Source of the DNA: a virus
Reading direction: 5' to 3' (one strand)
Length of the DNA: 64,000 bases
Virus record (IMG/VR): IMGVR_UViG_3300011013_000009
Location: 13,442 to 77,441 of that record
Below the pieces are notes generated by a model. That model saw only the letters and a list, made by a program, of their open reading frames with translations. It had not been told where the DNA came from and did no database searches. The translations under genes and the position numbers were made by a program. Positions 34,310 through 56,177 of the stretch are shown here, one piece after another (position 1 is the stretch's first letter; each line of letters opens with the position of its first letter).

Positions 34310-37300
34310 AAGAATTAGAAACTAATATAGAGTATATTGATAAGATATTTCACATATCTGATATACATATTAGAACACTAAAACGACACAATGAATTTAA
34401 TAAAGTTTTTGACAATATGTTTTTACACATTGCTCAACACGCAACAGATTCTAGTATTTGTGTTGTAACTGGAGATATAGTACATTCTAAATTAGAAATG
34501 TCTCCGGAACTAATAAACATGTTAACTAAATTCTTTCGTGGCTTTACAATTCCTACAATTGTTATGTTAGGAAATCACGATATGAATTTAAATAATTTAA
34601 ATCGAATAGATGCACTGTCGCCTATATTAAATGTAATTAATAATCCAAATATACATTTTATAAAAGAGAATGGGCTGTTTAAATTAGGAAATGTTGTCTT
34701 TAATCATATGGCAGTAGATGTACAGCCTGAAAATTATATACGAGCAAAAGATTTTGATGCACCATATAAAATTGCATTACACCATGGAGCAGTAGATAGC
34801 GCAGTTACAGATGTAGGATTTGAAATTTCAAATGATCATGTAAAGACAGATTTATTCGAAGGACATGATTTAACATTATTAGGAGATATTCACAAACCAG
34901 CACAATTTTTAAATACAGAAAAAACAATTGGATATCCTGGAAGTTTAATTCAACAAAATCATGGAGAGGCATTAGATCATGGTATGTTAGTTTGGGACCT
35001 CCCAAGTAAAACATCTGAATTTATACAAGTACATAATGAATATGGTTATGTTACATTTGAAGTTAATAAATCAACTATTGTAGATGCACCACACCGAGTT
35101 CCAGAAAAACCAAGAGTAAGAATAAAATTTAATGGAACAGATGCAGCAGATATTAAAAAATTAATTGCAACTATTCGAAACAAATATGATGTACAAGACA
35201 TTTCAATTCAACGGAATACTGACGAATTAGAACAACAGGAATTAGAAGTAAATACAATTGGAAATGTAAGAGATGTTGAATATCAAAATACAATGATAAC
35301 GGAATATGTTGAAAACACATTTCCAGATGCATTAGATTCAGAAGTAGATGCAGTAAGACACATTAATAGAACAATGAATTCTAAATTACCAGCACTCGAT
35401 TCTGTTAGAAACGTAACTTGGTATCCTGTGTCATTTGAATTCGAAAATATGTTTTCATATGGCAAAAAAAGTACTATTGACTTTTCTAAATTAAATGATG
35501 TAGTAGGATTATTTGCCGCAAATACATCTGGAAAATCATCTTTATTAGACGCAATAACATATACTATATTTGATAAATGTAGCAAGACAAGTAAATCAAA
35601 AGAAGTTTTAAATAATAAAAAGTCTACATTTAAAGGAGTATTTAAATTCATGTTAAATAATGAATTATATACTATTGAGCGAGAAGGAATAACATTAAAA
35701 CATGGACATGTTAAAGTAAATGTTAATTTTCATAATGAAACTGAAAATTTCAATGGGGAAGAAAGAAGTGATACAAATAAAATGATTCGAAAGTATCTTG
35801 GTACTTATGATGATTTCATATTAACTGCATTTTCATTACAAGCAGATAATAATAATTTTATAGAAAAGTCACAACGAGAAAGAAAAGATTTATTATCACA
35901 ATTTCTAGATACAACCGTATTTGAACAATTATATCATATTGCATCACAAGAAGTAAAAGAGACAGCTGGCAAGTTAAAAGAATATAAAAAGACGGATTTT
36001 GGAGAAATTATAAAACAATCTGATGAAATTATAACTGATGAGCAACAAGAAATTACAGAATTAGAAAAATCAGAACACGACTTACAAGAGTCACGAAATC
36101 AATTACAAGACGACATTTTAGAATTAATTGACCAAAAACAACCAACATCATATGATGGGCCAGATTTGGAAAAATTACAAGATGTACAAGAAGATTTAGA
36201 TTCAGAAATAGATACTACAGAAAGTAATATACAAGATCAAGAAGAAGTTGTACAACAAACTAATTCCAAATTTAAAGAGTTTAGCGATACTGTTAACGAT
36301 AATCAAGAAGTTACTACAGAAATATTAAAAGAGAAAATTGAAAAGCGTGCTCCTATTGTAAAAGAATTTGAAAGAAATATAAAAAAAATTACCAAGGAAG
36401 AAACTGAGTTAAAACAATTAATAAAAATACAAAAGAAAAAATTAGATCATTTAAAAACACACGAATATGATCCAAATTGTAAATATTGTACATCAAATGT
36501 TTTTATTAAAGAAGCGGAACAAGCAAAACAAGAATTGCCTGATAATGAAATTAGATTAGAGTCAAAACAAAAAGCAATAAAGCATTTCCAAAAACAAGCA
36601 GATGGAATTACAGAAACAATATCCAAATATCAATTAGGAGTAGACTTATTAAATAAATTAGAAACTCAAAAATTACAATTACAAGTAATGCAAAGCGATT
36701 TGCAAACAAAAGAGAATGAATTAAAAACAAATAAAAATCAACAAGACAATTATATAAAAAATGAATCTTCGATCATACATAATAGCGGAATAGATTCAAA
36801 AATTGAAAATAATAAATCATTAATAAAAGATATTAGTACTACATTAAAAGGTATAACTGGGTCGATTAAATCTAAACATGGAAAAATTGAAGTAGCAAAA
36901 ACTAAAAAGAAAAATGCAATCGAACAAATTGAAAAATATAAACAATTAGAAACAGAATATAAAGCATATGAATATTATTTAAGTGCTGTTGGAAGAAATG
37001 GCGTTTCATATGAATTAGTTAAAATTGCATTGCCTAAAATTGAAAACGAAATAAATAATGTATTAAACCAAGTAGTTGATTTTAATATGGTTTTACAGAC
37101 AGATGGAAAAAATATTAATGGATATATTATTTATGATGAAGATAATTTTTGGCCATTAGAATTAACATCAGGAATGGAAAGATTTATTTCTTCATTAGCA
37201 ATTCGTGTAGCATTAATAAATGTATCAGCATTACCAAGACCAAATTTCATAGCAATAGATGAAGGCTGGGGCAGTTTAGATCAAAACCATATGTCATCAA

Positions 37301-37440
37301 TTTCAAATCTATTTGAATATTTTAGAACCAAATTTGAGTTTTGTATTATTATTTCACACGTTGATACAATGAGAGATATGGTAGATAATTTAATCGAGGT
37401 AAATAAGATAGATAATTTCAGCCAGATTGTACATACTTAA
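34300..37440 (+). CDS. Fused SbcD/Mre11 nuclease - SbcC/Rad50 ATPase (gp47-gp46-like)
   Basis: SDIH, GD, GNHD, GDIH, YPGS; Walker A ANTSGKSS; zinc hook CKYC; TSGME; IAIDEG; ISH. Confidence 0.92.
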   Translation: MEIKELETNIEYIDKIFHISDIHIRTLKRHNEFNKVFDNMFLHIAQHATDSSICVVTGDIVHSKLEMSPELINMLTKFFRGFTIPTIVMLGNHDMNLNNLNRIDALSPILNVINNPNIHFIKENGLFKLGNVVFNHMAVDVQPENYIRAKDFDAPYKIALHHGAVDSAVTDVGFEISNDHVKTDLFEGHDLTLLGDIHKPAQFLNTEKTIGYPGSLIQQNHGEALDHGMLVWDLPSKTSEFIQVHNEYGYVTFEVNKSTIVDAPHRVPEKPRVRIKFNGTDAADIKKLIATIRNKYDVQDISIQRNTDELEQQELEVNTIGNVRDVEYQNTMITEYVENTFPDALDSEVDAVRHINRTMNSKLPALDSVRNVTWYPVSFEFENMFSYGKKSTIDFSKLNDVVGLFAANTSGKSSLLDAITYTIFDKCSKTSKSKEVLNNKKSTFKGVFKFMLNNELYTIEREGITLKHGHVKVNVNFHNETENFNGEERSDTNKMIRKYLGTYDDFILTAFSLQADNNNFIEKSQRERKDLLSQFLDTTVFEQLYHIASQEVKETAGKLKEYKKTDFGEIIKQSDEIITDEQQEITELEKSEHDLQESRNQLQDDILELIDQKQPTSYDGPDLEKLQDVQEDLDSEIDTTESNIQDQEEVVQQTNSKFKEFSDTVNDNQEVTTEILKEKIEKRAPIVKEFERNIKKITKEETELKQLIKIQKKKLDHLKTHEYDPNCKYCTSNVFIKEAEQAKQELPDNEIRLESKQKAIKHFQKQADGITETISKYQLGVDLLNKLETQKLQLQVMQSDLQTKENELKTNKNQQDNYIKNESSIIHNSGIDSKIENNKSLIKDISTTLKGITGSIKSKHGKIEVAKTKKKNAIEQIEKYKQLETEYKAYEYYLSAVGRNGVSYELVKIALPKIENEINNVLNQVVDFNMVLQTDGKNINGYIIYDEDNFWPLELTSGMERFISSLAIRVALINVSALPRPNFIAIDEGWGSLDQNHMSSISNLFEYFRTKFEFCIIISHVDTMRDMVDNLIEVNKIDNFSQIVHT

Positions 37441-37465
37441 TATTTATAGAAAAGAGTAATGTTAA

Positions 37466-40400
37466 ATGGCAAAACAGCGGGCAGTAAAAAAAGGATTTGA
37501 TACAATTCCAACTTATTTTACAGACACATCTGTATCATCTCCAGATGTATTCAAAATTACTAAACTCCCATTACGATTCACAGCCGGCAAAAATTTAATT
37601 AAATTACAAGGCAATACTGATAATTTAAAATTAGGAACACTTGTTGATGTTGAAGTTTTAGATTATAATGGAGACCCAATATATTCTGAGTTTATTGATT
37701 ATCTAGAAGAAGATAAGTCTAGAGTCATTGCAATTTATGTTTATGAAGATACATCTCCTGGTGACTGTACTGTTACTATTACTGGAACGTTGTCTAAACT
37801 CAACGGACAGCCAGTTCCACAAGAATGGCAAGGCAAAACAAATGTTAAATGGATTAAACAATTTCCAGTTAATCCTACAGATCCAAATGAAACAGAAATA
37901 ATATTCACAAAAGAACCTACAATAACTGTTGAAGAAAATGTAGGAGTACAGTTAGATAGAAATTATACAACAACTCAATTCCCAACATATACTACAGGAA
38001 CAGTTGAATATTTTTTTAAAAATAATCAGCCGGCATTACAATTAGTAGGTGGAAAATTTGAAGGAGATATGATCGGAGGAACTATTACAGTTGCTAGCCC
38101 AACAAACCCAGCACCAACACCAAATTATACTCCATCCACTACACAATTTACATCTAAAATAAAAAAAGTATTAAATGACAATTCAGTAACATTAGAAACA
38201 CCATTTACTGTTTTAAGCAACAAAACAATATCATCTCATACATATAATCATTTTGATCCATCATCATTTAGTTTATCATATGAAGCAGACCCAACATATG
38301 TCGCAACACAAAATTCAGAATCATTTGCATTATTACAAATAAATGATTTAGATCCAGCAACAGGAGATATTTCAAGAATAAAAGTTTATACCAACGGGAG
38401 TGGCACTGTTGGCACATGGGAACAAGTAAATGATGTATTGTTAGAAGGCACAGAAATATTTGTAGATTCTACAGCATCATTAACACCAGATCAATCTATA
38501 GGAATATTTACAACACAAAGTATAATTGATACGTATTGGGAAGGACATTTATATTTAGGCAATTCTGAATCAACTGAACCAGCTTTATTATGGAGGACTG
38601 GATCAATTAATAATGGAATGTTAATTCGCAGTACTACAAATATTAATGCAAAAACAGATGTATTGGTTGCACAAGTAACAGATCAATATTCTGGATTTTT
38701 CGTAAGCCAGTCACAATATAAAGTTACAATTGATGCATTTGCAGAAAGAAGTATTTTATCAGATTATAATAATCCTAAACTATCGATATATGCATCTGGT
38801 TCTGCATTTAATTTTGATACAACCGATGTTCTAAATCAATCGTTGCCAGTAACATTAGGTAAGAAAATTGGAGAAATAGAAAGCACTGCAAAAACATCGC
38901 AACGGTATGATGATATAGAATTTGAATTTAAATCAGATCAATCAGGTAATGGCTCTTTGTTATTTGTAGTAGAAGCAGGAAAATGGTATATTGCTGATAT
39001 AAGAACAGTAACAAGTGCAGAAATAGGTTACAGCCCAAATTACACAAGAATTAGATCTGAAATACCAACTAAACATAAAAGTGATAATCAATTATCATTT
39101 AAAGTAGAATATTATAATGTAATTGGTGATAGAAGTAAAACTATTAGTTATGTTAATAATAAAACTTGGGAAGGTGGAAATAGATATATTGACGGAGCAT
39201 TTTCAATGCTTACTGGTTCATTATATGTAGCTGATACATTAGAATCAGGTATAGATATTTCCGGATTAAAAGATACAGGCTTTATTCGTTCATTACCATA
39301 TGGAGGATTTAATCAAGCAACAGGATCAGGAGCACCAGGATTTTTATTGTTTTCTGGATCTGCATTGCCAAATCAAACAGCAACATCATATCAAGGCGTT
39401 GGATTAGAAATGGTTGCTGATGCAAATAACTATTTTAGATTTAGAACCAATCCATCAATATTAGATATAAGAACAGAAACAATATTTTTGAGTGGTAGTA
39501 ATGTTGAAATAAATACTCCAAATTTCTTTTTAGGAGTGGAAGGAGGAGTTTATTTATCTGGATCAAATGGAAATATTGCAATTTCTGCTTCTAATTTTTC
39601 TGTATCTCAAGAAGGAAGTGTAACTGCATCAAATGCATTATTTAGTGGAGTAGCATTAGCTAATATTATACGGGATAAAACTATAATTGTAAATGATGGT
39701 AATAGCGGAAGTTATTTACAATTAGTAGATATAGAACCAGGCGGTGGTATATGTTATGCAACACAAGTTGTTTTCGATGGGTCATTGGGTGGAGAAACAG
39801 TCCGAAGACTACGTATAGCAACAACTAATTTACCATATTCGCCAACCTTCCCTGCCGGCACAAACGGAGCACCTATAGGAGATTTTTTACTTCCGGAATT
39901 ATCTAGTACATCAAAATTAGATTTTGTTTTAGAATTTGCTGGTGACAATAAATCTGTATTTGATGTGTTTACTCCATCGAAAGCAGCCGGTGGCCCTAGC
40001 CCCCCACCATTCACTTGTCCACCAGACTATATTACATTAGACGCGAATTCTGTATTAACTTTCGTAGCCGGCGGATCTGGGCTTACTTGGTTAACAACTG
40101 CTGGTACACAACACCCGTTTGATCATACATTTAACCGCAATATTACAATCGGAGATGGAGATTCAAGTGGAGGATCAATACAGGTAATAAAGTCAGGGTC
40201 AAATACCGGCACCTCTGCCAGGATTGGTCCTTATATTGAACTTATTAATCCAACTTATGGAAACACTAATAAATTTACTATATCACAAGGAGGAACTACT
40301 GGAACTACTCCACTCGTATTAGCAAACAATGAGCCATATTGGGGAATTGTATCTAACCAAGTAGGTACTATATTTAATGAACCATATATAGCATTTTCTG

Positions 40401-40768
40401 GATCTTTAAATGGAGATACTAGAAAAACAATGATTACTAGTGCACTGTATCACAATTGGCGCGAAATATCATCTGCTGGAACATATGATGCCAACGGAGA
40501 TGATTATTTTATTATTGTTAATCACACAACTGGTACTGTTACAATAGAGCCATCTGCCGTAGCTTCGGAACAAGGGCGTGTTTTAAAAATAATATATACC
40601 GGAACTGGTGGAACATTAGTTATTAATCCTCCCGGCTTCGGAGTTATATTAATTGCCGGTGGAGGAGTACTAACTAGGACTACTACTGTGCAAGGATCTG
40701 CTATATCATTAGTAGCAAACGGAGCTACATCGTGGATACAATTCGCAGAAACTGGCACATGGACATAA
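37466..40768 (+). CDS. Large tail/baseplate structural protein with fibre-like C terminus
   Basis: Late motif at 37440; beta-rich, SGS-rich; C-terminal DDYFIIVN...GRVLKII...W fibre-tip-like module. Confidence 0.6.
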   Translation: MAKQRAVKKGFDTIPTYFTDTSVSSPDVFKITKLPLRFTAGKNLIKLQGNTDNLKLGTLVDVEVLDYNGDPIYSEFIDYLEEDKSRVIAIYVYEDTSPGDCTVTITGTLSKLNGQPVPQEWQGKTNVKWIKQFPVNPTDPNETEIIFTKEPTITVEENVGVQLDRNYTTTQFPTYTTGTVEYFFKNNQPALQLVGGKFEGDMIGGTITVASPTNPAPTPNYTPSTTQFTSKIKKVLNDNSVTLETPFTVLSNKTISSHTYNHFDPSSFSLSYEADPTYVATQNSESFALLQINDLDPATGDISRIKVYTNGSGTVGTWEQVNDVLLEGTEIFVDSTASLTPDQSIGIFTTQSIIDTYWEGHLYLGNSESTEPALLWRTGSINNGMLIRSTTNINAKTDVLVAQVTDQYSGFFVSQSQYKVTIDAFAERSILSDYNNPKLSIYASGSAFNFDTTDVLNQSLPVTLGKKIGEIESTAKTSQRYDDIEFEFKSDQSGNGSLLFVVEAGKWYIADIRTVTSAEIGYSPNYTRIRSEIPTKHKSDNQLSFKVEYYNVIGDRSKTISYVNNKTWEGGNRYIDGAFSMLTGSLYVADTLESGIDISGLKDTGFIRSLPYGGFNQATGSGAPGFLLFSGSALPNQTATSYQGVGLEMVADANNYFRFRTNPSILDIRTETIFLSGSNVEINTPNFFLGVEGGVYLSGSNGNIAISASNFSVSQEGSVTASNALFSGVALANIIRDKTIIVNDGNSGSYLQLVDIEPGGGICYATQVVFDGSLGGETVRRLRIATTNLPYSPTFPAGTNGAPIGDFLLPELSSTSKLDFVLEFAGDNKSVFDVFTPSKAAGGPSPPPFTCPPDYITLDANSVLTFVAGGSGLTWLTTAGTQHPFDHTFNRNITIGDGDSSGGSIQVIKSGSNTGTSARIGPYIELINPTYGNTNKFTISQGGTTGTTPLVLANNEPYWGIVSNQVGTIFNEPYIAFSGSLNGDTRKTMITSALYHNWREISSAGTYDANGDDYFIIVNHTTGTVTIEPSAVASEQGRVLKIIYTGTGGTLVINPPGFGVILIAGGGVLTRTTTVQGSAISLVANGATSWIQFAETGTWT

Positions 40769-40817
40769 TTTTAATATTAATATAAACTAACTAGATATTT
40801 ATAATAAAGAATAAAAA

Positions 40818-43800
40818 ATGGATAAAGTAACAGTATTATTCCCAGGAGGATTTAAACCAATCACAGGAGCTCATATGGCTCTTGCTCAACGATACGCACA
40901 AAACCCAAATGTTAATAAAGTTTTAATGTTTATTGGACCAAAAGCAAGACATGGAGTAACAAGAGATCAATCCAAACAAATATTCAATTTATTAAATAGA
41001 AACAAAAAAATACAATTAATATATTCTAGATTAAATTCTCCAATTGCATCAGCATTTGATTATTTACTTACAATGCCAGAAGACACTGTCGGAAAATTTG
41101 CATTAGCAGCTGCGAATAAAGATAAAGACTATGTACGAATAAAAGATTTTATTGGAGCAGTTGATAAATATAAAATTAATCCAGACAAAAAAGGAAATAA
41201 AATTCCACAAGGAGTAGATGCTATAGAATTAATGGTAAATGTAGACCCATTAACATATCCAAACGGAGAACCTATATCTGCAGATTCAACTATATCTACA
41301 ATAAATTCCGGAGAGTTATCAAAATTTAAAGACAGCTATCCAAATTACTCAGATGCTATAGTAAAAAATATATGGCAACTATTAGGTGGAGAATCTACAT
41401 TTGGAGATGAATTTGGAGATGAAGCAAAATCAAGAGTACAAAAAAGTGCGGGCATAAAACCAAAAGAAGATTTTTCTACACAAATGCCATTAATAGGATG
41501 GGAATATGATAAATTTGTAGAGAATTATAAAAATCTACACCCAGATAATGTAGTAGAAGATGGCCCTGATAATTACACATATGGATATAGAAAAGGCGAT
41601 ACCCAAGCCCATTGGAAATATGATGATTTAGACAATGTAATACAATCAGACTCGAATAAAGAAATTAGAAAAGTAATTGGATCTCCCCAAACCGCAACGT
41701 TATGGAAAGAATCTAAATATGGCAATCAAGTGTCGTGGAATACAAGTCCTATACAAACAGCTTCTGGCCAAATGCCAAAAGAAAAACACACTGATGGTAA
41801 AGGAAATGAATTGCCAACTAAAGATGAATACGAAATAGGAGACAAAGTAGAAATCCCATATCAATATATGGTTACTACTGGAATAGTTAGAAGTATTGAT
41901 AAGAGAGGCAAATCAAACCCAAGAAATTGGGAATATACAGTACAACAAAAAGGCGATGAAGCAGGAACAAAAGAAGAGGATGGTTATAACGGACCTAGGT
42001 CATATCCATGGGGATATGATATATATGGGTATTGGCCTGATAAAGAAAAAAATGAAAGTATACTCACAAAAGATTGGTGGGTAAATGAATTACTTGCAGA
42101 TGCAAAACAAATGTTCAATGAATTAAGAACAGGCAAAAGATTAAGAGTATTTGATTTTGATGACACATTAAGCAAAATGAATGCTACTATATATGTTACA
42201 CACAGAGATGGAAATAAGACAAATTTAAGTCCAGCAGAATTTGCAGTATATGAGCCAAGGCCAGGCGATGACTTTGATTTTAGAGATTTTGATAAAATTA
42301 TAAAAGGAGCAACACCAATATCTGTTAACATAGAAGCACTACGAAAAGCACAAAATGATCCTGGAGCAAAAACAACAATATTAACTGCGAGAGGAATAGG
42401 ATACCCAGTAAAAAGATATTTAGAAAGAGAACACGGAATAAAAAATGTTTATGTAGTAGCATTAGGTTCATCAGACCCAATGGATAAAGCAAGGTGGATA
42501 GAAGACCAAATTAAAAAAGGATATGACGACATTTATTTTATAGACGATTCTCATAAAAATATAGCCGCAGTAAAAACATTGATAGATAAATATCCAGATG
42601 TACATATGGATGTCGAATTGGCAGAAGGATATGAAACTCCAAAAGGAGCTAAAGCGCACATTAAAAAAATAAGCAAATTAAGAAAATATTTAGATAAAGA
42701 TGATAATAAAGGATTTGTTTATGACTTCGATAAATTTCCTAAAACTGTGTTTGGAACCAAACATTTAACTGAAGGCGGATTAGCTGGACATATGAATCAC
42801 CCATTTGAGCGAGCAACATCAAGATCACTGACATTTGGAGATATGAAAGAAATAGTTGCTAGGGCATTACAAGGAAGATTAGATATTGAATCTGTTGTAA
42901 CAGAAAAGACTGATGGATTAAATATATTTGTAACAGTTAAAGATGGACAAGTTAAATTTGCAAGAAATAAAGGAGAAAGAGTCAATCCACTAACTGCAAA
43001 AGAGTTAGCTACAAAATTTGCCGGTCGAGGAGATTTAACAAAAGCATTCACAGAAACTGGGGAAGATTTAGCATCAGCATTTTCACAAGTTAATTCAGAA
43101 ACAATACAAAGTATATTCCAAAATGGACGTGTATTTGCAAACATGGAAATTATATATCCAGATACTAAAAATGTTATTTCATATGATATTGCAGCATTAC
43201 AATTTCACAATTTACAGGAATTTGATGAAAAAGGAAATGTAGTCCAAACTGATATGACAGGAGCAAATGTAATACAAAAAGCAGTCGAAGATGCAAATGC
43301 TCATATGCAAAAAACATTTAATTTAATACCACCAAATAAAATTAAAGTTGGACAGTTAGAAGATTTTGAAGATTACCAAGATGCGTTATTTAATGAATTA
43401 GACCAATTAAAAAATCAATATGAATTAGATGATAAAGATACTATATCTGAATATCATAAAGGGTGGTGGAGAGATGTAATACAAGATAAAGCAACTGAAT
43501 TAGGATATGAAATTCCAGAAGAAGTTTTAGAATTGTTAGTCGATAGATGGGCATTCAATTTAAAAGGCACAAGAATCACAGCTGTTAAAAAAATGATTGA
43601 CAATGAAAAATTTGCAAATTGGGTTACTGATTTTGATAAAAAAGATTTTAAACAATATCAAAAACAAAATGTAGAACCATTTGAATCTGTATTTTTAAAA
43701 TTAGGTGCAGAGGTATTAAAGAATGTTTCTAGTATGTTGGCTGCAAATCCTAATAAAACGGCACAACAAATAAGAAAAGATTTAGCATCTGTAATTCGAG

Positions 43801-43997
43801 AACTAAGAGCAACCAATGATTTAAGAAAATTAGAATTAATGAAAACACATTTACAAAAAATTCAACGAATGGGAGGATTTGAAAAAATCGTGCCAATTGA
43901 AGGTTTAGTATTCGTGTATGGTGGGAATACTTATAAATTAACTGGATCATTTGCACCAATAAATCAAATATTAAACATTGTAAAGTATTCTAGATAA
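40818..43997 (+). CDS. Multidomain enzyme: HIGH-type nucleotidyltransferase + HAD phosphatase + ligase-fold (KxDG) domain
   Basis: FPGGFKPITGAH; VFDFDDTL/LTARG/FIDDS; EKTDG...ARN...NME...EGLVF...YKLTG. Confidence 0.75.
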   Translation: MDKVTVLFPGGFKPITGAHMALAQRYAQNPNVNKVLMFIGPKARHGVTRDQSKQIFNLLNRNKKIQLIYSRLNSPIASAFDYLLTMPEDTVGKFALAAANKDKDYVRIKDFIGAVDKYKINPDKKGNKIPQGVDAIELMVNVDPLTYPNGEPISADSTISTINSGELSKFKDSYPNYSDAIVKNIWQLLGGESTFGDEFGDEAKSRVQKSAGIKPKEDFSTQMPLIGWEYDKFVENYKNLHPDNVVEDGPDNYTYGYRKGDTQAHWKYDDLDNVIQSDSNKEIRKVIGSPQTATLWKESKYGNQVSWNTSPIQTASGQMPKEKHTDGKGNELPTKDEYEIGDKVEIPYQYMVTTGIVRSIDKRGKSNPRNWEYTVQQKGDEAGTKEEDGYNGPRSYPWGYDIYGYWPDKEKNESILTKDWWVNELLADAKQMFNELRTGKRLRVFDFDDTLSKMNATIYVTHRDGNKTNLSPAEFAVYEPRPGDDFDFRDFDKIIKGATPISVNIEALRKAQNDPGAKTTILTARGIGYPVKRYLEREHGIKNVYVVALGSSDPMDKARWIEDQIKKGYDDIYFIDDSHKNIAAVKTLIDKYPDVHMDVELAEGYETPKGAKAHIKKISKLRKYLDKDDNKGFVYDFDKFPKTVFGTKHLTEGGLAGHMNHPFERATSRSLTFGDMKEIVARALQGRLDIESVVTEKTDGLNIFVTVKDGQVKFARNKGERVNPLTAKELATKFAGRGDLTKAFTETGEDLASAFSQVNSETIQSIFQNGRVFANMEIIYPDTKNVISYDIAALQFHNLQEFDEKGNVVQTDMTGANVIQKAVEDANAHMQKTFNLIPPNKIKVGQLEDFEDYQDALFNELDQLKNQYELDDKDTISEYHKGWWRDVIQDKATELGYEIPEEVLELLVDRWAFNLKGTRITAVKKMIDNEKFANWVTDFDKKDFKQYQKQNVEPFESVFLKLGAEVLKNVSSMLAANPNKTAQQIRKDLASVIRELRATNDLRKLELMKTHLQKIQRMGGFEKIVPIEGLVFVYGGNTYKLTGSFAPINQILNIVKYSR

Positions 43998-44025
43998 TAT
44001 TTATATTAAAAATAAGGCAATAGCT

Positions 44026-44874
44026 ATGGCTAAAAAGTACAAAAAACCAGAAAATAAAAAACATAAACCCAGAAAAGATTTAAAAGATTATGAGGGAAAA
44101 GAGACTGAAAATATGGTATTAGACGCATCAGGCGAACCACAACCAGATGTTCCTAGAAAAATTAAATATTCAGACATAGGCGATTCTGAAAATATGGTTT
44201 ATGATGTAAAAGATTCTGATAGGGCATATCCAATAAAAGATATGCAAGACGGAGATCCTAAGATGGCTAAACACGCATTAAAAACATTTGATAAAAACGT
44301 AGAAGCTGATGCTGACGATTTTATAGAAACATTGTCAAAAAAGGATGGTGGGTATACTTCTAAATTAAAAAAATTAACTAAAGAACAAAAAGAAAAATTC
44401 GTTAGAGCTATAGTTCGTAAGCGTATTGAACAATTTATTAATGAATCAGTACAGTTAGAACAAGGCGATCCAGAAGAAGAGCCATTAGCTGATACTCCAG
44501 AGCCTGCACCAGCCCCCGAAGCACCAGCAGTTCCTGCAGATCAAACAGAACCTGCACCAACTCCCGAAATACCTGCAGAACCAGAATCAACTCCTGAAAT
44601 GCCGGCGCCAACAGGAGCGGCTACTTCACCCGAAGCACCTGAAGCACCAGAAGCATCAGCCGACCCAAATGATCCGGATGGCGATGGTATGCCAGGCGAT
44701 TCTAGAATTGATAACTTTGTATTAGCAGTTCAACAAAAACCAAATATTGTACAGCAAATAAAAATGATTATGGATGTAATAAATAAAATTACTGCTGAAG
44801 ATGATAGAAAACAAAAAATTGGAAAAATTGGTTTATTAAAGCGAGTTGTAGATAGAGCAATTTCAAGATTATAA
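44026..44874 (+). CDS. Putative head-associated protein with Pro/Ala/Glu-rich linker
   Basis: Late motif at 43997; FINE followed by a PEPAP-rich segment. Confidence 0.6.
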   Translation: MAKKYKKPENKKHKPRKDLKDYEGKETENMVLDASGEPQPDVPRKIKYSDIGDSENMVYDVKDSDRAYPIKDMQDGDPKMAKHALKTFDKNVEADADDFIETLSKKDGGYTSKLKKLTKEQKEKFVRAIVRKRIEQFINESVQLEQGDPEEEPLADTPEPAPAPEAPAVPADQTEPAPTPEIPAEPESTPEMPAPTGAATSPEAPEAPEASADPNDPDGDGMPGDSRIDNFVLAVQQKPNIVQQIKMIMDVINKITAEDDRKQKIGKIGLLKRVVDRAISRL

Positions 44875-44883
44875 AAGGATAAT

Positions 44884-45522
44884 ATGTCAAAAAAGTTACA
44901 AAATATAAAAGCAGTGAAAAAAATGCTCGAAGGAACTCATGCATTTCAAACAAAGAAAACTCACGGATTTTCAGATGCTAAAAAAACAGCAGACAAAAAT
45001 CAAAAACGAGAAGTGGGAGATATCTGGGATGAAGAAATTAATGGTACCCTTTACACAATAGAACAAAAAAAAGGGTTTAGAATAAAAAAACCAAAAAATT
45101 CAATCGCATCAGATATAAAAGAATATTTAAAATCATTTCCAAATTGTCCAAAAGAAACATGTACATGTAAAGCGCCAAATCGATTAGATAATAAGATGCG
45201 TATATATCACGGAAAATGTTTTGATTGTGTTATTGATATGGAACATCAATTACGTGTAGAAGGAAAATACGAAGAGTATGAAAAAAATAGAATAAAAAAT
45301 AATGCAGTTGCTTGGTTAAAAAAAGCAGAAGAAGATGTTAAAATGTTAAAAAAAGCATACACCGAAGCTAGTACAATAGTTACTAATGCAGATGGTTTAA
45401 CAGAGAATTGGGCAGCAAAAATGACTCCGGAACAATTCGAAGAATCAGTACAACAAAATTTTGATAAGTTTAAAAAAGAATTTTTAGAAAATTTAAATAA
45501 AGAAGAAAATGAAGACAATTAA
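44884..45522 (+). CDS. Cys-cluster hypothetical protein
   Basis: CPKETCTC...HGKCFDC; AAGGA upstream. Confidence 0.75.
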   Translation: MSKKLQNIKAVKKMLEGTHAFQTKKTHGFSDAKKTADKNQKREVGDIWDEEINGTLYTIEQKKGFRIKKPKNSIASDIKEYLKSFPNCPKETCTCKAPNRLDNKMRIYHGKCFDCVIDMEHQLRVEGKYEEYEKNRIKNNAVAWLKKAEEDVKMLKKAYTEASTIVTNADGLTENWAAKMTPEQFEESVQQNFDKFKKEFLENLNKEENEDN

Positions 45523-45829
45523 AAAATATTGGAAAATAATTGCAGGTGCAATTGTAGGATTATTTGGATTAATATTTCTAGTTTCAAGAAAAATAACTGC
45601 AAACAAATTAGATAAAACAGAAGAAGAAATTGATAAAAATAATTCAAAAGTCGATAAATTATCAGGAAAATTGGAACGAATTAAAGAGGAAGAAGAAGAA
45701 GCTAAAGCAGACATTAAAAAACAAAAAAAAGATATTAAAGAGGCAAAAAAGAAAAAAGACACCGTTCCTACAACAAAGAGAACTACTGCCGATGCTAAGA
45801 AAAATATAATCAAAAAAACTCGGAAATGA
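45509..45829 (+). CDS. Membrane-anchored coiled-coil protein (spanin-like architecture)
   Basis: N-terminal TM plus charged coil. Confidence 0.45.
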   Translation: MKTIKKYWKIIAGAIVGLFGLIFLVSRKITANKLDKTEEEIDKNNSKVDKLSGKLERIKEEEEEAKADIKKQKKDIKEAKKKKDTVPTTKRTTADAKKNIIKKTRK

Positions 45830-46206
45830 AAAAATTTTTTATTATATTATTATTATTACCAGTTTTTTCGTTTACACAAACTGTTGATACTTGTTTTACA
45901 GAAGAACAAATACATGATATATCTGAAACAATAGATTCATTATATTATTTAGATTCTGTTAACAATGATATTATAATAAAACAAGACAAGTTAATATCTA
46001 GTTTAGATCGATTAAATAAATTAGATTCATTACAAAAATTATATTATCAACAACAAATTGATTTATTAAACAGTAACATTGATTTATATATTGAACGAGA
46101 AGACCTTATAAAACCAAAATGGTATGATAGCAAAATAATTTGGTTTGGTGCTGGTATATTAACTACGGTATTGACCGGAAAGTTAATTGTAGAAGTGGTT
46201 CAATAA
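45826..46206 (+). CDS. Signal-peptide coiled-coil protein with C-terminal TM (spanin-partner-like)
   Basis: MKKFFIILLLLPVFSFT-Q signal; KPKWY..IWFGAG TM. Confidence 0.45.
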   Translation: MKKFFIILLLLPVFSFTQTVDTCFTEEQIHDISETIDSLYYLDSVNNDIIIKQDKLISSLDRLNKLDSLQKLYYQQQIDLLNSNIDLYIEREDLIKPKWYDSKIIWFGAGILTTVLTGKLIVEVVQ

Positions 46207-46207
46207 T

Positions 46208-47785
46208 ATGGCTGAAAAAAATATAAAACAAATAATTGAAGAACAATATGTAAAGTGTGCAAATGATCCAGTATACTTTATGCGACAGTTTTGCTATATT
46301 CAACATCCTTTAAAAGGAAAAATCAAATTCGATTTATTTCCATTTCAAGAAGAATCACTATCTACTTTACAAAATAGTCGTTATAGCGTAATATTAAAAT
46401 CAAGGCAGTTGGGTATATCAACATTATCTGCTGGATATGCATTGTGGTCGATGTTATTTAATGAAGACTTCAACGTTTTGGTTATAGCAACAACACAAGA
46501 TGTAGCAAAAAACTTAGTAAGTAAAGTTCAAATAATGAATGAAAATTTACCTAGTTGGTTAAAAACTACAATAACAACTAATAATAAATTATCATTAAAA
46601 TTTTCAAATGGTTCGCAAATAAAAGCAATTTCAAGTGCATCAACAGGAGCTCGGTCAGAAGCATTATCATTACTAATAGTTGATGAAGCCGCATTTATTA
46701 GAAACATCGAAGAGATATGGGTGGCATCACAAGCAACGCTATCAACAGGTGGTGGCGCTATTGTTTTATCTACCCCAAATGGTTTAGGAAATTGGTTTCA
46801 TCAAATATGGGCAGATGCTGAAACTGGCACAAATGGGTTTGAAACAATTAAGTTAAAATGGGACCTTCACCCAGAACGTGATCAATCTTGGAGAGATGAC
46901 CAAACAAAGTTATTAGGCGAAAGAGGAGCAGCTCAAGAATGTGATTGTGATTTTATATCATCAGGTCATACTATTGTCGATGGGGCAATATTACAACAAT
47001 ATGAATTAAAATGTGAAGATCCGGTTGAAAAAAGAGGATATGATAACGGTTATTGGATTTGGGAATATCCAGACTATACAAAAAATTATATAGTAGTAGC
47101 AGATGTCGCAAGGGGCGATGGAGCAGATTGGTCTGCATTTCATGTAATCGATGTTGAAACAATAACCCAGGTAGCAGAGTATAAAGGAAAGCTACCACCT
47201 AAAGATTTTGGCAACATGTTAGTATCAGTTGCAACAGAATGGAATAATGCATTATTAGCAATTGAAAATGCAAATATAGGATGGGCGGCAGTACAGCCAG
47301 CATTAGATAGAGGATATGAAAATCTATTTTATACATATAAAACAGAAGGATATGTAGATTTAGAAGTACAATTACAAAAAGGATATGACATAAAAGATAA
47401 AACAAAAATGGTACCTGGAGTCTCAACTACAAGTAGAACTAGGCCATTAATGATATCTGCATTAGAAATGTATATGAGAGAAGGAACGCCTATTATTAAA
47501 TCAAAACGACTTATACAAGAATTATTTGTATTTGTCTGGCTTAACGGTAAAGCACAGGCACAGATTGGTTATAATGATGACTTAGTAATGAGTTATGCAA
47601 TAGGATTGTGGTTAAGAGATACTAGTTTAAAATTAAGACAACATGGAATTGAATTAAATAAACGAGCATTATCACAATTTAGAAAAACAGATACAACCAT
47701 TTATACTAATAATAACACAAAACAAAATGATAGTTGGAAATGGAATAATGGTTCAGAAGACGAAAATTTAACCTGGCTTCTGTAA
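46208..47785 (+). CDS. terL: Terminase large subunit (T4 gp17-like)
   Basis: LKSRQLGIST, IVDEAAFI, STPNG, AQECDCDF, ADVARGDG, NDDLVMS. Confidence 0.96.
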   Translation: MAEKNIKQIIEEQYVKCANDPVYFMRQFCYIQHPLKGKIKFDLFPFQEESLSTLQNSRYSVILKSRQLGISTLSAGYALWSMLFNEDFNVLVIATTQDVAKNLVSKVQIMNENLPSWLKTTITTNNKLSLKFSNGSQIKAISSASTGARSEALSLLIVDEAAFIRNIEEIWVASQATLSTGGGAIVLSTPNGLGNWFHQIWADAETGTNGFETIKLKWDLHPERDQSWRDDQTKLLGERGAAQECDCDFISSGHTIVDGAILQQYELKCEDPVEKRGYDNGYWIWEYPDYTKNYIVVADVARGDGADWSAFHVIDVETITQVAEYKGKLPPKDFGNMLVSVATEWNNALLAIENANIGWAAVQPALDRGYENLFYTYKTEGYVDLEVQLQKGYDIKDKTKMVPGVSTTSRTRPLMISALEMYMREGTPIIKSKRLIQELFVFVWLNGKAQAQIGYNDDLVMSYAIGLWLRDTSLKLRQHGIELNKRALSQFRKTDTTIYTNNNTKQNDSWKWNNGSEDENLTWLL

Positions 47786-47815
47786 TAAGATATATTTATA
47801 TAAAAAAAGAAAACA

Positions 47816-49636
47816 ATGGCATCATTAAGAAAACGTTTAAGAAATTTATTTTCTACTAATGTAATAGTACGTAAGTATGGAAAAGATCGTCTAAGAGTAG
47901 TCGATACTAACAGATTACAGTCATTAGGAAATTTATCACAAAGCAAGTTAACGGATAGATATAATCGATTACACGGCACAACTAAACATAATATGGGTGG
48001 TTATGGCGGATATGATTCGAATTACTACATGCAACAGAATCGTATGCAATTGTATACTGATTACGAGATGATGGATAAAGACCCAATAATATCATCTGCA
48101 TTAGATATATATGCTGACGAATCAACATTAGCAGATCAGTTCGGCGATATATTAACTATTAAAACAAATAAAACTCATATACAAAAAATATTATACAATT
48201 TATATTATGACATATTAAACATTGAATTTAATATGTGGCCATGGATTCGTAATATGTGTAAGTATGGAGATTTCTTTTTAAAATTAGATGTTGCTGAAGA
48301 AATAGGAATTTTAAATGCACGCCCACTTTCTACTTATGAAATTGAAAGATTGGAACAGTATGACGAAACAACGGGTGAATATGATATTAAATTTAGACAC
48401 GCCGCAACAGAACATTTAGAATATGATGTGTTTGAGATAGCACACTTCAGGTTATTATCAGATTCAAACTTCCTCCCATACGGCCGAGCAATGCTTGAAG
48501 GAGCTAGACAAGAATTTCAAAAATTAATGATGTTAGAAGATGCAATGCTTATTCACAGAATAATGAGAGCACCCGAAAAACGTATTTTTAAAATTGATAT
48601 TGGTAATATTCCACCCAATGAAGTTGATTCATTTATGGAAACAATTATTAATAAAATGAAAAAAATTCCATATGTTGATAAACAAACTGGTAACTATAAT
48701 CTTAAATTTAATTTGAATAATATGTTAGAAGATTATTACTTACCTGTGCGGGGAGGCAATAGTCAAACGACAATAGATACACTACCAGGAATGGAGTTTA
48801 CCGGCATTGATGACATCGAATATGTAAAACACAAAATGATGGCAGCATTGAAAATTCCTAAACCATTTTTAGGATATGATGAGGGAGTTGAAGGGAAAAC
48901 TACATTAGCGTCAATGGATATTAGGTTTGCAAGAACAATTGAAAGAATTCAAAAAATAGTTGTTTCAGAATTAGTTAAAATTGGAATTGTACATTTATAT
49001 TCTCAAGGCTATGAAGGAGATGATTTAATAGGATTTGAGTTAGAATTGACTCCGCCATCTATAATTTACGATCAACAAAAAGTTGCATTGATGAATGAAA
49101 AAGTAACTTTAGCATCTGCAATGAAGGATCTAAAACTAGTTTCAGATAAATACATTTATGAGTATATTTTCAATATGTCTGAAGATGAGTGGTTAGAAGA
49201 GCGTAATAATGTTATAGAAGATCTTAAATTAAGATTTAGACAAAATCAAATTGAACAAGAAGGTAATGATCCAACATTAACAGGAACATCATTTGGAACA
49301 CCACATGATTTGGCGTCAATTCATATGAGTACCGATGACGTAGAAGATAAAGATCCGGGGGGCAGACCACCCGAAGGAATTAAATATGGACAGCACAAAA
49401 ATGAATTTGGTTGGGATCCAACTGGGGCTAAAACAATTAAGCAAGGAACAGATCCAAACAATATCACAACCACATTCCAACCAGATCCTAGATTTAGAAA
49501 TACAAAAACAACTGTAGCAACTGAAAATGCTGATATTTTAAAGAAATTAAGACCTAAAAGCCCAAAGATTATAACAGAAGATCAAAATAAAGATGTAGAT
49601 TCTGGAACAATGTTGGACGAAGACAATATTTTATAA
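47816..49636 (+). CDS. Portal protein (T4 gp20-like)
   Basis: LMMLEDAMLIHRIMRAPEKRIFKIDIGN; MLEDYYLPVRGG; IDTLPG; ALKIPK. Confidence 0.96.
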   Translation: MASLRKRLRNLFSTNVIVRKYGKDRLRVVDTNRLQSLGNLSQSKLTDRYNRLHGTTKHNMGGYGGYDSNYYMQQNRMQLYTDYEMMDKDPIISSALDIYADESTLADQFGDILTIKTNKTHIQKILYNLYYDILNIEFNMWPWIRNMCKYGDFFLKLDVAEEIGILNARPLSTYEIERLEQYDETTGEYDIKFRHAATEHLEYDVFEIAHFRLLSDSNFLPYGRAMLEGARQEFQKLMMLEDAMLIHRIMRAPEKRIFKIDIGNIPPNEVDSFMETIINKMKKIPYVDKQTGNYNLKFNLNNMLEDYYLPVRGGNSQTTIDTLPGMEFTGIDDIEYVKHKMMAALKIPKPFLGYDEGVEGKTTLASMDIRFARTIERIQKIVVSELVKIGIVHLYSQGYEGDDLIGFELELTPPSIIYDQQKVALMNEKVTLASAMKDLKLVSDKYIYEYIFNMSEDEWLEERNNVIEDLKLRFRQNQIEQEGNDPTLTGTSFGTPHDLASIHMSTDDVEDKDPGGRPPEGIKYGQHKNEFGWDPTGAKTIKQGTDPNNITTTFQPDPRFRNTKTTVATENADILKKLRPKSPKIITEDQNKDVDSGTMLDEDNIL

Positions 49637-49675
49637 TTAACACGATATTTATATGTAAAGGAACTGTGTTTCGAT

Positions 49676-51094: not shown

Positions 51095-51718
51095 ATGTCT
51101 AAAGCTTTATTAGTAGAATATATGCCATTTAAACCTATCTCTCCATTAACTGAATCAGATGGAGCAAAATTCGGAGTACCTGGTGGAATGGTAGTTCAAG
51201 GGGTATTACAAAGAGCTGGAGCAAAAAACCAGAATGGGAGAATATACCCAAAACACATTTTAGCAAGAGAATGTGTAAGATATCAAAAAGAGTATATAGA
51301 TCAACATAGGGCATTAGGAGAATTAGATCACCCAGAATCATCAATTGTTAATTTAAATAATGTATCTCATAATGTTTTAAAAATATGGTGGGATGGTGAT
51401 AATCTTAAAGGAGCAGTACAAGTATTAGATACTCCCGCAGGAAATATATTAAAATCACTATTTAAATCAGGGATAACATTGGGGATATCTAGTAGGGGTT
51501 TAGGAAGTGTAAAAGAATTATATAAAGAATCAGCAGTTGAAGTTCAAGAAGACTTTGAATTAATATGTTGGGACTTTGTATCTAATCCGTCGACAACAGG
51601 AGCATTTATGCAACCAATGTTTGAGTCGACAAATAAAATGAATGTAATAAACAAATATGGCAGAGTAAATGAAATTATAACTTCAATACTTTGTGATGAT
51701 GGAAAATGTAGGATATAA
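51095..51718 (+). CDS. Prohead protease (T4 gp21-like)
   Basis: NQNGRIYP, ALGELDHP, VSH, GISSRGLGS, DFVSNPS. Confidence 0.95.
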   Translation: MSKALLVEYMPFKPISPLTESDGAKFGVPGGMVVQGVLQRAGAKNQNGRIYPKHILARECVRYQKEYIDQHRALGELDHPESSIVNLNNVSHNVLKIWWDGDNLKGAVQVLDTPAGNILKSLFKSGITLGISSRGLGSVKELYKESAVEVQEDFELICWDFVSNPSTTGAFMQPMFESTNKMNVINKYGRVNEIITSILCDDGKCRI

Positions 51719-55818: not shown

Positions 55819-55861
55819 ACTGTTTTAATATTTATATAAAAGAATTATAGGAAAATTAACA

Positions 55862-56137: not shown

Positions 56138-56177
56138 TAGCCTAAATAAAATATATTTATAATAAAGGAAATAACAA

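Follow-up and report, generated by a model that had tools for sequence, protein, structure and literature searches.

The window analysed here is a stretch of 64,000 nucleotides from a marine T4-like phage. On its plus strand lies one long gene, ORF 40818-43997, which adjoins the DNA-packaging genes and encodes a protein of 1059 residues (Table 1). Since a TAA codon stands two codons 5' of the ATG, an N-terminal extension of the reading frame is impossible. Four marine metagenome runs contain contigs more than 99% alike to the ORF, and no indels are listed for them. The single polypeptide joins a nucleotidyltransferase, a Pnkp-type phosphatase and an RNA-ligase-like domain, and all three domains have sequence support. 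Every motif quoted in the original prediction was found at the residue given for it, namely PGGFKP at 9, TGAH at 16, MFNE at 432-435, DFDDT at 446, LTARG at 522 and IDDS at 575 in the N-terminal and HAD parts, and LAE at 601-603, LTE at 650-652, KTDG at 697, ARN at 715, NME at 775, EGLVF at 1028 and YKL at 1039 in the linker and C-terminal part. The HIGH-type, HAD and ligase-type assignments each gained statistical support from profile searches.

Table 1. Features of ORF 40818-43997 and its upstream region, in window coordinates.
Feature	Residues (aa)	Position	Strand	Remarks
Whole ORF	1059 + stop	40818..43997	+	Single open frame; present in the 77-kb viral record (100% self-match)
Promoter-like motif TATTTATA (core of ATATTTATA[T/A]A)		40796..40803	+	14 nt upstream of the ATG of the ORF
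HIGH / cytidylyltransferase-like nucleotidyltransferase	1-195	40818..41402	+	PGGFKPITGAH at 9-19; ISADSTI at 153-159
Middle module	201-300	41418..41717	+	(E/D)DGP..Y motif at 247; common to close relatives P0152 and P0153
Insert of ~114 aa	301-414	41718..42059	+	Piece originally predicted to be SH3-like; absent from nearest relatives
HAD phosphatase, T4 Pnkp type	431-600	42108..42617	+	phrog_415 match; motifs I, II and IV intact
Linker	601-652	42618..42773	+	LAE603 and LTE652; no other [LI]xE up to residue 652
Ligase-like module	653-1059 (~410)	42774..43994	+	Conserved columns; hhalign match to Rnl2 family

The N-terminal domain had been proposed to be a HIGH-superfamily domain with a variant TGAH motif, and the profile matches agree with this. 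A profile of the 1059-aa protein and 12 relatives (A5) matched PPAT structures, with 3nd5 as the best hit (E 3.8e-6), and a wider family profile matched NaMNAT 2h29 (E 7.4e-6) and NMNAT 2qjt (E 3e-5). In the subgroup profile search, PGGFKPITGAH aligned to PGSFDPMTNGH of 3nd5, and the domain has the GxFxPxT/HxxH signature and the Rossmann N-terminal half in common with PPAT/CoaD, NadD and NMNAT. PF01467 is present in 25 of 40 and 31 of 75 relatives (best E 1.7e-10), whereas the score of the 1059-aa protein itself stays below the Pfam threshold (E 0.24, 12 bits against a cut-off of 21). The protein also differs from the HIGH-superfamily adenylyltransferases in the second signature, ISxxxxR, where it carries Ile in the Arg column. 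Arg is found there in 12 of 13 aligned sequences, and 192 of 201 relatives have the signature with Arg. As this conserved Arg is lost, the HIGH domain of the 1059-aa protein may be altered or inactive. Across the family, the HIGH nucleotidyltransferase is the constant partner of the ligase module.

The middle of the protein had been described as SH3-like, a label for which we found no backing, as residues 201-430 gave no Pfam or NCBIfam match even at E ≤ 10. The [DE]DGP motif of the middle module recurs in 49 of 154 proteins examined and lies, among the matches listed, mostly between the nucleotidyltransferase and the ligase-like domain. The insert that follows is missing from the nearest relatives: P0152 (948 aa) and P0153 (945 aa) align only to residues 1-300 and 411-1059, and jackhmmer with the insert returned no other protein of the set searched that contains it. 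Marine contigs span both insert junctions, e.g. X2 record 3 at 41603-42262.

The predicted HAD domain was recovered with its catalytic signature, consisting of motif I (D446-F-D448-D-T450, i.e. DxDxT), motif II (T523 in LTARG) and motif IV (D576-D577). Residues 431-587 match phrog_415, 'polynucleotide kinase', at E 2.7e-8, and an hhalign comparison of the HAD sub-family with residues 157-239 of T4 Pnkp gave P 8.4e-5 and a probability of 60% over 71 columns. The HAD models of NCBIfam and Pfam gave weak matches to the 1059-aa protein, below their cut-offs.

The C-terminal module contains, in this order, GGLAGHMNHPF, EK697TDGLN (motif I), AR716N, D750, NME777IIYP followed by Y789, an insert of about 230 residues, E1028-G-LVF and YK1040LTG. 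In alignments of 16, 40, 75 and 80 rows, K697, D699, G700, R716, D750, E777, Y789, E1028, G1029 and K1040 are invariant or at least 90% conserved. Motif I (EKxDG) never varies at D and G and is at least 90% conserved at E and K; by regular expression, EKxDG occurs in 139 of 151 representatives, and in the relative P0073 an intein is inserted at this very motif. When the first 190 module columns were compared with the Rnl2 family by hhalign, a match over 110 columns was obtained (P 7.1e-5, probability 63%), with motifs I, Ia, III and IIIa collinear, and the whole module gave P 4.2e-4. The Rnl2-family match scored 38.6, compared with a mean of 15.0 and a maximum of 23.1 for 60 column-shuffled templates, and Rnl2 ranked first among 70 T4 ORFs against the module profile. 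T4 Rnl1 is collinear from motif I to NFEFVAP (NMEIIYP here), with P values of 0.015-0.044 for motifs I-III of the Rnl1 family, while T4 DNA ligase gave no match in the profile comparison. A HMMER search of the T4 genome with the A3 profile returned no matches. For the last 61 module columns, no alignment to motif IV or V was obtained with either Rnl1 or Rnl2, and EGLVF and K1040 are a pattern match only. Of the ligase-type motifs originally predicted, those from motif I to motif IIIa are backed by profiles. Unlike in known ligases, approximately 230 residues separate motifs IIIa and IV, and no OB-type domain was detected in the ligase-like protein.

Searches of public resources place the module in a widespread clade that has no name in any public source. 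It matched 711 representative clusters at E ≤ 1e-30 and gave 3209 matches at E ≤ 1e-3 in the representative library, and all 240 public entries listed are 'hypothetical' or unnamed. Of the ESM Atlas clusters, the nearest ones (score 0.96, viral) are unnamed or DUF6267. The named neighbours are RNA_ligase clusters with scores of 0.79 and 0.75, which, like the weak PF09414 matches of relatives, we take as a lead only. DUF6267 (PF19782) accounts for 23-24% of the members of the nearest clusters, and its model of 376 positions is close to the module in length. However, the PF19782 model matched neither the window's genome nor 10 standalone relatives, it is unlisted among the families of the 40 or 75 relatives, and we found no mention of DUF6267 in the literature.

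The variation in domain architecture that the original prediction had put forward as a check was readily found. P-loop kinases are fused to the module in some relatives (Zeta_toxin in 5 of 40), and AAA_33 in 4 of 40. A CCA-adding enzyme, made up of a PolyA_pol head and an RNA-binding domain, and a 2H phosphoesterase were seen in 1 of 40 each, and other relatives carry HAD domains or stand alone. Judged by their sequences, the kinase, the CCA-adding enzyme and the 2H phosphoesterase make up the repertoire of RNA end repair.

With regards to its genomic position, homologues of the gene precede TerL by 0.5-6.3 kb, both on one strand, in 73 of 80 loci. The remaining 7 loci end less than 2 kb past the homologue, so that the arrangement holds in 73 of 73 informative loci. 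The conserved gene order is SbcC-like, 1100-aa ORF, ORF 40818-43997 homologue, TerL and portal. Given this fixed position in every relative, a core function seems to suit the gene better than a role as an accessory counter-defence. The original prediction had also named a late motif near the head module. Indeed, the 8-mer TATTTATA is found no more than 60 nt upstream of 14 of the 63 plus-strand ORFs examined, including those at 37466, 40818, 44026, 47816 (portal), 49676, 55862 and 56178; TATAAATA, with 20 of 24 matches on the minus strand, is the same motif, read on the plus strand as TATTTATA. The promoter-like motif common to portal and head genes was therefore confirmed, but in the direction of transcription it does not match the T4 late consensus, and the label 'late' for ORF 40818-43997 is drawn from the genes that carry it, among them the portal and other head-module genes.

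From the domain homologies, conserved residues, fusion partners, synteny and promoter motif observed here, we infer that ORF 40818-43997 encodes one multi-domain enzyme for healing and sealing nucleic acid ends, most likely in RNA (tRNA) repair, expressed from the head-module promoter motif. We hold this explanation with middling confidence; every catalytic activity, RNA as the substrate and the time of expression are predicted. A host ribonuclease would leave a 2',3'-cyclic or 3'-phosphate end, and the Pnkp-type HAD domain, with D446 as nucleophile, would remove this phosphate. The C-terminal domain would act as a covalent nucleotidyltransferase in which K697 takes up AMP and passes it to the 5'-phosphate end, after which the nick would be sealed. 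Neither the 1059-aa protein nor the 77-kb record (46% of the genome) contains a kinase, while relatives have a fused P-loop kinase, and so either the 5'-kinase would need to be supplied by another source or the substrate would be 5'-phosphorylated from the start. As far as sequence can tell, the enzymology proposed at the outset, with a Pnkp-type 3'-phosphatase, a ligase-type adenylyltransferase and a HIGH nucleotidyltransferase in one chain, is thus upheld.

The same set of domains could instead serve the repair of DNA ends or the sealing of nicks together with the upstream gp46/47-type recombination nuclease, making DNA ready for packaging. The conserved gene order from SbcC-like to portal and the core-like behaviour of the gene speak for this, and DNA ends, too, are substrates of Pnkp-type phosphatases and P-loop kinases, as in the T4 pseT annotation and in other systems. 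Furthermore, PF01068 has no match in the complete 190-kb genome of Microcystis phage Mel-JY01, and the sole PF01653 signal of that genome (13.4 bits, below the cut-off) lies inside the homologue of ORF 40818-43997. However, many T4-like phages lack a DNA ligase altogether, and the missing ligase is for that reason weak evidence. What points back to RNA is the Glu directly before the motif I Lys (EKxDGxN), as in T4 Rnl2 (REKIHGTN), together with profile matches to Rnl2 and Rnl1 and not to T4 DNA ligase, the lack of a detectable OB-type domain, and the fusion of relatives to an RNA-acting CCA-adding enzyme and a 2H phosphoesterase. We therefore consider a role in DNA repair unlikely.

Another explanation concerns delivery. 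The original prediction regarded the protein as a virion-packaged precursor that enters the prohead, where the T4-type prohead protease cuts it at linker [LI]xE sites into separate enzymes, which are injected with the DNA as a ready-made repair kit. A T4-type head maturation protease is encoded in the window (phrog_207, E 1.5e-54), and the gene adjoins the packaging module and carries the head-gene promoter motif. Polyvalent phage proteins located near late virion genes and predicted to be injected are described in PMC5512222, and for T4 head proteins PMC5694885 reports propeptides of 10-20 residues and cleavage after Glu. The gp21-type sites named at the domain boundaries were not confirmed as such. 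Overall, the 1059-aa protein has 6 [LI]xE sites where shuffles have 8.8 ± 2.7, no more than chance would give, and MFNE falls outside the [LI]xE motif. The distribution is uneven, with no site in residues 1-600 (4.1 expected, P 0.013) and two in the 52-residue HAD-ligase linker (0.33 expected, P 0.027), a stretch that also aligns with HAD-less relatives (P0154 from residue 592). In the linkers of 58 representative relatives, 298 [LI]xE were counted against 228 expected (z 5.7, a score inflated by the relatedness of the sequences), and the control [LI]xD was at expectation. On the other hand, LTE652 belongs to the conserved domain motif (L/I)(L/I)x(E)GGAxGHMxHPF, in which 29 of 127 relatives have Cys or Met in place of the Glu. 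The packaged T4 protein Alt shows no site avoidance (8 [LI]xE observed, 7.9 expected), and such counts consequently diagnose little.

The N-terminus gives a similarly divided picture. In 52 of 78 relatives the nucleotidyltransferase motif starts at least 20 residues from the N-terminus, behind a CTS-like leader of about 12 or more residues that recalls the T4 internal proteins; T4 ipII, ipIII and gp24 have [LI]xE at residues 8-10. Many of these leaders fit M..L..[FYW]L[VA]E.IL.E, and the same leader stands before unrelated domains in L153 and L154. However, ORF 40818-43997 and its close relatives have no leader, and an upstream start is excluded by the stop codon. The protein begins MDKVTVLFPGG, directly at the first Rossmann-fold strand, and has no [LI]xE before residue 601; a propeptide like that of T4-type processed head proteins, 10-20 residues long with [LI]xE at its end, was not found at the N-terminus. 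For this ORF, the missing leader and the lack of [LI]xE enrichment argue against a packaged and processed precursor, which we regard as improbable.

Very unlikely is the fuller version of this scheme, a capsid-delivered tRNA-repair kit of marine T4-like phages. In it, the CTS-like leader would target the precursor to the prohead, the prohead protease would trim it at the linker [LI]xE sites, and the HIGH nucleotidyltransferase would make or regenerate the ligase cofactor, e.g. NAD+ from NMN and ATP. Delivered with the capsid, the kit would be active before any phage gene expression, and with the ligase cofactor renewed, sealing would continue in cells whose abortive-infection systems had attacked NAD+ or tRNA.

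Highly doubtful, finally, is a C-terminal module that is some other Lys-nucleotidylating enzyme or not catalytic at all, its likeness being limited to a motif-I-like segment: PF09414 in 17 of 75 relatives and PF01653 in 5 of 75 give weak, sub-threshold matches (best E 0.0011), all six located Pfam ligase matches cover about 30 residues at motif I, PF09414, PF01068 and PF01653 do not match the 1059-aa protein even at E ≤ 10, its module matches no Pfam, NCBIfam or PDB sequence profile, neither Rnl1 nor Rnl2 has anything equivalent to the unusual N-terminal GGAxGHMxHPF motif and the 230-residue insert, and the nearest ESM clusters carry no ligase name, yet the hhalign match covers 110-174 columns, more than motif I, and scores above all 60 shuffled templates, E777, E1028-G and K1040 are invariant and fit, one after the other, motifs III, IV and V, and the fusion partners are end-healing enzymes.

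The preferred reading as an end-healing and sealing enzyme invites comparison with T4, where Pnkp plus Rnl1/Rnl2 are the heal-and-seal answer to anticodon nucleases. The Pnkp-type HAD domain is common to both (DFDDTLSKMN here, DVDGTLAKMN in T4 Pnkp, pseT), and the region from motif I to IIIa resembles that of T4 Rnl1 and Rnl2. In contrast to the T4 system, the domains are here joined in one polypeptide without a kinase and with a HIGH nucleotidyltransferase added, and the gene lies in the late/packaging region, whereas the T4 pseT and Rnl genes are among the early genes. The module itself differs from the T4 ligases as a separate unnamed clade with an extra His-rich motif at its N-terminus and the 230-residue insert. 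Likened by domain plan alone, bacterial Pnkp (Pnkp/Hen1) and fungal and plant Trl1 also hold healing and sealing domains in one chain, with the ligase-type adenylyltransferase at the C-terminus in bacterial Pnkp; they use a metallophosphoesterase or a 2H phosphodiesterase. To our knowledge, these enzymes always include a kinase, and none has a HIGH nucleotidyltransferase. With several unrelated enzyme domains in one late-region protein, and a CTS-like leader in many relatives, the family also resembles phage polyvalent proteins (Iyer et al. 2017, PMC5512222) and T4 Alt and internal proteins, but profile searches of the 1059-aa protein and 40 relatives found no zincin protease, ArdC, MuF or other polyvalent hub domain.

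If the preferred reading is true, a large group of abundant marine T4-like phages encodes, in a constant position next to the terminase, an enzyme that heals and seals ends and whose ligase part belongs to a clade named in no database. RNA ligases would then span a wider range than is known, and one would for the first time be seen paired with a HIGH nucleotidyltransferase. The modular relatives, with a kinase, a CCA-adding enzyme, a HAD domain or the module standing alone, form a natural series for dissecting the role of each part. For the phages themselves, it suggests that the repair of RNA (or DNA) ends would be a core late function rather than an occasional accessory.

The conserved positions of the C-terminal module (aa 653-1059) encoded by the gene at 40818-43997 follow the order of ligase motifs. 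The reading frame is open for 1059 codons, and its start is fixed because an in-frame TAA lies two codons 5' of the ATG; the motif positions quoted in the original prediction were all correct when the translated sequence was re-read. A head motif, (L/I)(L/I)xEGGAxGHMxHPF, is followed by EK697xDGxN, AR716N, D750 and NxE777(I/V)IYP...Y789, then by approximately 230 variable residues, and finally by E1028-G-(I/L)VF and YK1040(L)TG. The module is widespread: a phmmer search against 1.84 billion representatives returned 3209 proteins at E<=1e-3, of which 711 reached E<=1e-30. For 148 of 150 matches listed, the best stretch fell within query residues 585-1059, and among those listed it was nearly always C-terminal in targets of about 380 to 1985 aa. 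All entries listed from word-indexed searches (120 + 120) were unnamed or called 'hypothetical protein', and none carried a precomputed Pfam domain. In the relative P0073, residues 4-38 form an intein C-terminal splicing domain that ends exactly before the TDG of motif I, a placement that would fit an essential active site. Two sets of relatives, of 40 and 75 proteins, each had one member with an intein or Hint domain.

The module was left unmatched when the whole protein was compared by sequence with Pfam and the PDB, and when four pieces were compared with NCBIfam and Pfam. A profile of standalone ligase-like relatives gave chance-level matches in the PDB (E >= 0.18) and no match in the whole T4 genome. 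Sub-threshold Pfam matches were found in the relatives (PF09414 in 17 and PF01653 in 5 of 75), and in all six of the 20 standalone relatives having such a match it lay over motif I. For hhalign, the Rnl2 and Rnl1 sequences of T4 were expanded into family profiles with members from IMG/VR loci and from four bacterial loci. Templates limited to one T4 sequence or to close T4-like relatives gave marginal matches (P 0.007-0.044), and the match was convincing only once the four distant Rnl2-like bacterial loci had joined the profile, the leading 190 module columns then aligning with Rnl2 residues 19-129 (P 7.1e-5, probability 63%) and the whole module with the Rnl2 family (P 4.2e-4). The observed score of 38.6 compares with 15.0 +/- 2.5 (maximum 23.1) for 60 column-shuffled templates. 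When 70 T4 ORFs were ranked, Rnl2 came first and Rnl1 fourth; the second-ranked ORF, Alt, is probably a spurious match. The Rnl1 family was collinear with the module from its motif I as far as its NFEFVAP segment. The last 61 columns, with the putative motifs IV and V, found no counterpart in the corresponding part of Rnl1 or Rnl2, and the ligase fold proposed originally is a prediction.

Neighbours in the ESM Atlas were unnamed viral clusters, 23-24% of whose members carry DUF6267; the named neighbours, taken as leads only, were RNA_ligase clusters (scores 0.79 and 0.75). As an identity for the module, DUF6267 found no confirmation. In the literature covered, nothing was found on a phage RNA ligase fused to a cytidylyltransferase or NMNAT, on DUF6267 or on Microcystis phage Mel-JY01. 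Any prior description would most likely stand in Burroughs and Aravind 2016 (NAR 44:8525), and supplementary files of PMC7824862 and PMC5512222 may list the family.

Taken alone, the N-terminal nucleotidyltransferase (NTase) domain (aa 1-195) only weakly matched CTP_transf_like (E 0.24). Over 200 residues it shares 60% identity with relatives such as P0154. A 13-row alignment including it matched 46 PDB sequences at E<=1, and most of these are PPAT, among them the best match, 3nd5 (E 3.8e-6), a result that supports the HIGH-superfamily assignment. The wider family profile matched NaMNAT and NMNAT across both signature motifs, and PF01467 was recognised in 25 members of a set of 40 relatives and in 31 of a set of 75. 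The second signature reads IS[AS]xxR in 192 of 201 relatives; its arginine is missing here, as in the two closest relatives, so that, judged from the sequence, this copy of the domain may have an altered activity or none. Weak tblastn matches to aa 1-176 (27-29% identity, E 5e-6) were also obtained in 11 records of Prevotella Lak megaphages within MK250015-MK250028, and the ligase module was unmatched in the same records.

The HAD phosphatase assignment (aa 431-600) held up as well. The domain matched phrog_415 'polynucleotide kinase' (E 2.7e-8), and a 7-row alignment of its sub-family aligned with T4 Pnkp residues 157-239 (P 8.4e-5), with the DxDxT nucleophile motif, the downstream LxKMN and the Arg of LTARG in register. 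According to its database record, T4 pseT is a 5'-kinase, 3'-phosphatase and 2',3'-cyclic phosphodiesterase; the present protein has no P-loop. A second Pnkp, an AAA_33 kinase or a PF09414 ligase was not found in the 77-kb IMG/VR source record, which proves little because that record covers an estimated 46% of the genome.

The intervening aa 201-430 matched nothing in Pfam or NCBIfam, and jackhmmer searches with aa 201-300 and 301-415 returned the two closest relatives only, or nothing. Within aa 201-300 (window 41418-41717) lies an (E/D)DGP..Y motif; of 154 proteins examined, 49 have a [DE]DGP motif, and in most of those listed it lies in the stretch that separates the NTase from the ligase module. 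A small conserved module of the pattern (V)DDGP..(F/Y)Y...Y......GW.V(V/I).Y was noted in this interval, and no family matched it. Residues 301-414 are an insert: P0152 and P0153, the nearest relatives, lack it, and their flanking sequence on both sides is 83-93% identical to that of this protein. Marine contigs span both junctions.

The window has a GC content of approximately 30%, and no tRNA genes were found in it. Its large terminase (TerL) is T4-type; among isolates, Mel-JY01 comes nearest at 56% identity, followed by the Flavobacterium phage 'immuto' group at 52%. Four marine metagenome runs, each from a different study, were used for contig comparison and contained fragments more than 99% identical; run labels include marine, seawater, viral and sponge, and that of the likely source is subsurface. 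In run X6, one joint omits 150 bases at 43481-43632, but only one contig shows it, with 35 bases on one side, too little for an interpretation. Four small ORFs separate the gene from TerL.

Position of the gene, its neighbours and the promoter-like motif copies in the window
Feature	Coordinates	Location	Remarks
Primase-family PHROG matches	33368-34309	upstream of gene	
SbcC-like nuclease subunit	34300-37440	upstream of gene	
1100-aa ORF	37466-40768	upstream of gene	unassigned; no PHROG match
NTase-HAD-ligase gene	40818-43997		+ strand
282-aa ORF	44026-44874	directly 3' of gene	long Pro/Glu/Ala-rich low-complexity stretch; own promoter-motif copy; no PHROG match
TerL	46208-47785	downstream of gene	
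Portal	47816-49636	downstream of gene	
T4-type head maturation protease	51095-51718		phrog_207, E 1.5e-54
Major head protein	54088-55737	after head maturation protease	
Promoter-like motif copies (examples)	37441-37448, 40796-40803, 43998-44005, 47793-47800, 49646-49653, 55829-55836, 56154-56161		

Synteny was followed in 80 IMG/VR loci with relatives at 40-72% identity (L084-L163). A TerL match lies 0.5-6.3 kb 3' of the gene on the same strand in 73 of them, and the remaining 7 stop less than 2 kb past the gene. A homologue of a 212-aa ORF follows the gene in 72 loci, the portal was found in 51, the 1100-aa ORF in 35, the SbcC-like gene in 22 and the 282-aa ORF in only 16. The conserved order (window 33368-49636) is SbcC-like gene, 1100-aa ORF, NTase-ligase gene, 212-aa Cys-rich ORF, TerL and portal, and Mel-JY01 has the same arrangement. 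In its complete 190-kb genome, PF01068 (ATP-dependent DNA ligase family) was unmatched, and the only PF01653 (NAD-ligase adenylation domain) signal, a sub-threshold one, falls inside the homologue of this gene (product WWT39297). Because of this pattern and the position beside recombination and packaging genes, the product could be a DNA-sealing enzyme, although we consider this improbable; T4 DNA ligase gave no alignment with the module.

The claim of a late motif near the gene was correct with regard to a promoter-like 8-mer 5' of both the gene and the portal, but when read in the direction of transcription this sequence does not correspond to the T4 late consensus. TATAAATA has 24 matches in the window against 22.7 expected, a total at chance, of which 20 lie on the - strand, corresponding to TATTTATA on the coding strand (P ~0.0015, two-sided binomial). 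The motif ATATTTATA(T/A)A is strand-specific and promoter-like, with copies across 2088-63611. The 8-mer stands 12-33 nt 5' of the start in 14 of 63 + strand ORFs examined, including, besides the gene and the portal, the 1100-aa ORF and those at 44026, 49676, 55862 and 56178. We only infer a 'late' class for the TATTTATA-type motif from the genes carrying it, since the 8-mer also precedes five function-unknown genes in the first 11 kb. A second motif, CCTTATATTTAAG, occurs at about 160-1290, 5' of the first three ORFs (205, 866, 1288), and may represent another promoter class.

Whether the ORF encodes a packaged precursor processed by the prohead protease is doubtful. The gp21-type sites, [LI]xE, were predicted at the domain boundaries; both early ones do lie in the HAD-ligase linker (P 0.027) and aa 1-600 have none (P 0.013), but their total is at or below chance, and we rejected it as evidence of processing. 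Among 58 representatives, whose kinship inflates the figures, [LI]xE is enriched in linkers (298 vs 228 expected) and depleted in the two catalytic domains (179 vs 274), with the control [LI]xD at expectation in both. Avoidance was rejected as a hallmark of packaging, as T4 Alt is packaged and shows none. At the position of the Glu preceding GG in the head motif, 29 of 127 relatives have Cys or Met. Passages in PMC5694885 and PMC3012670 describe T4-family prohead proteases as cleaving after Glu and T4 head-protein propeptides as 10-20 residues long. The NTase motif begins at least 20 residues from the N-terminus in 52 of the 78 relatives, leaving a leader of about 12 residues or more, and many of these leaders are similar to the N-terminal ends of T4 ipII, ipIII and gp24. 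The pattern M..L..[FYW]L[VA]E.IL.E recurs in many relatives (P0007, P0010, P0018, P0083, P0111 and others; loci L138, L151, L153, L154) and behaves as a separate N-terminal module, because in L153 and L154 it precedes a different domain. The present ORF, however, has no such leader.

Domain architecture varied across relatives, with seven layouts. The commonest is NTase + ligase at 660-690 aa (P0154, P0160); others are NTase + HAD + ligase (P0007), HAD + ligase (P0012), kinase + NTase + ligase (P0020, P0036, P0061), CCA-adding head and RNA-binding domains + NTase + ligase (P0052), the ligase module N-terminal to the NTase (P0119), and standalone ligases of about 410-440 aa. 2H phosphoesterase and ADP-ribosyltransferase domains were single cases. 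Where PMC7824862 treats jumbo-phage surveys, RNA ligases are listed with kinase, phosphatase, 2H and CCA-adding enzymes, the same kinds of domain that are fused to the ligase-like module in these relatives.
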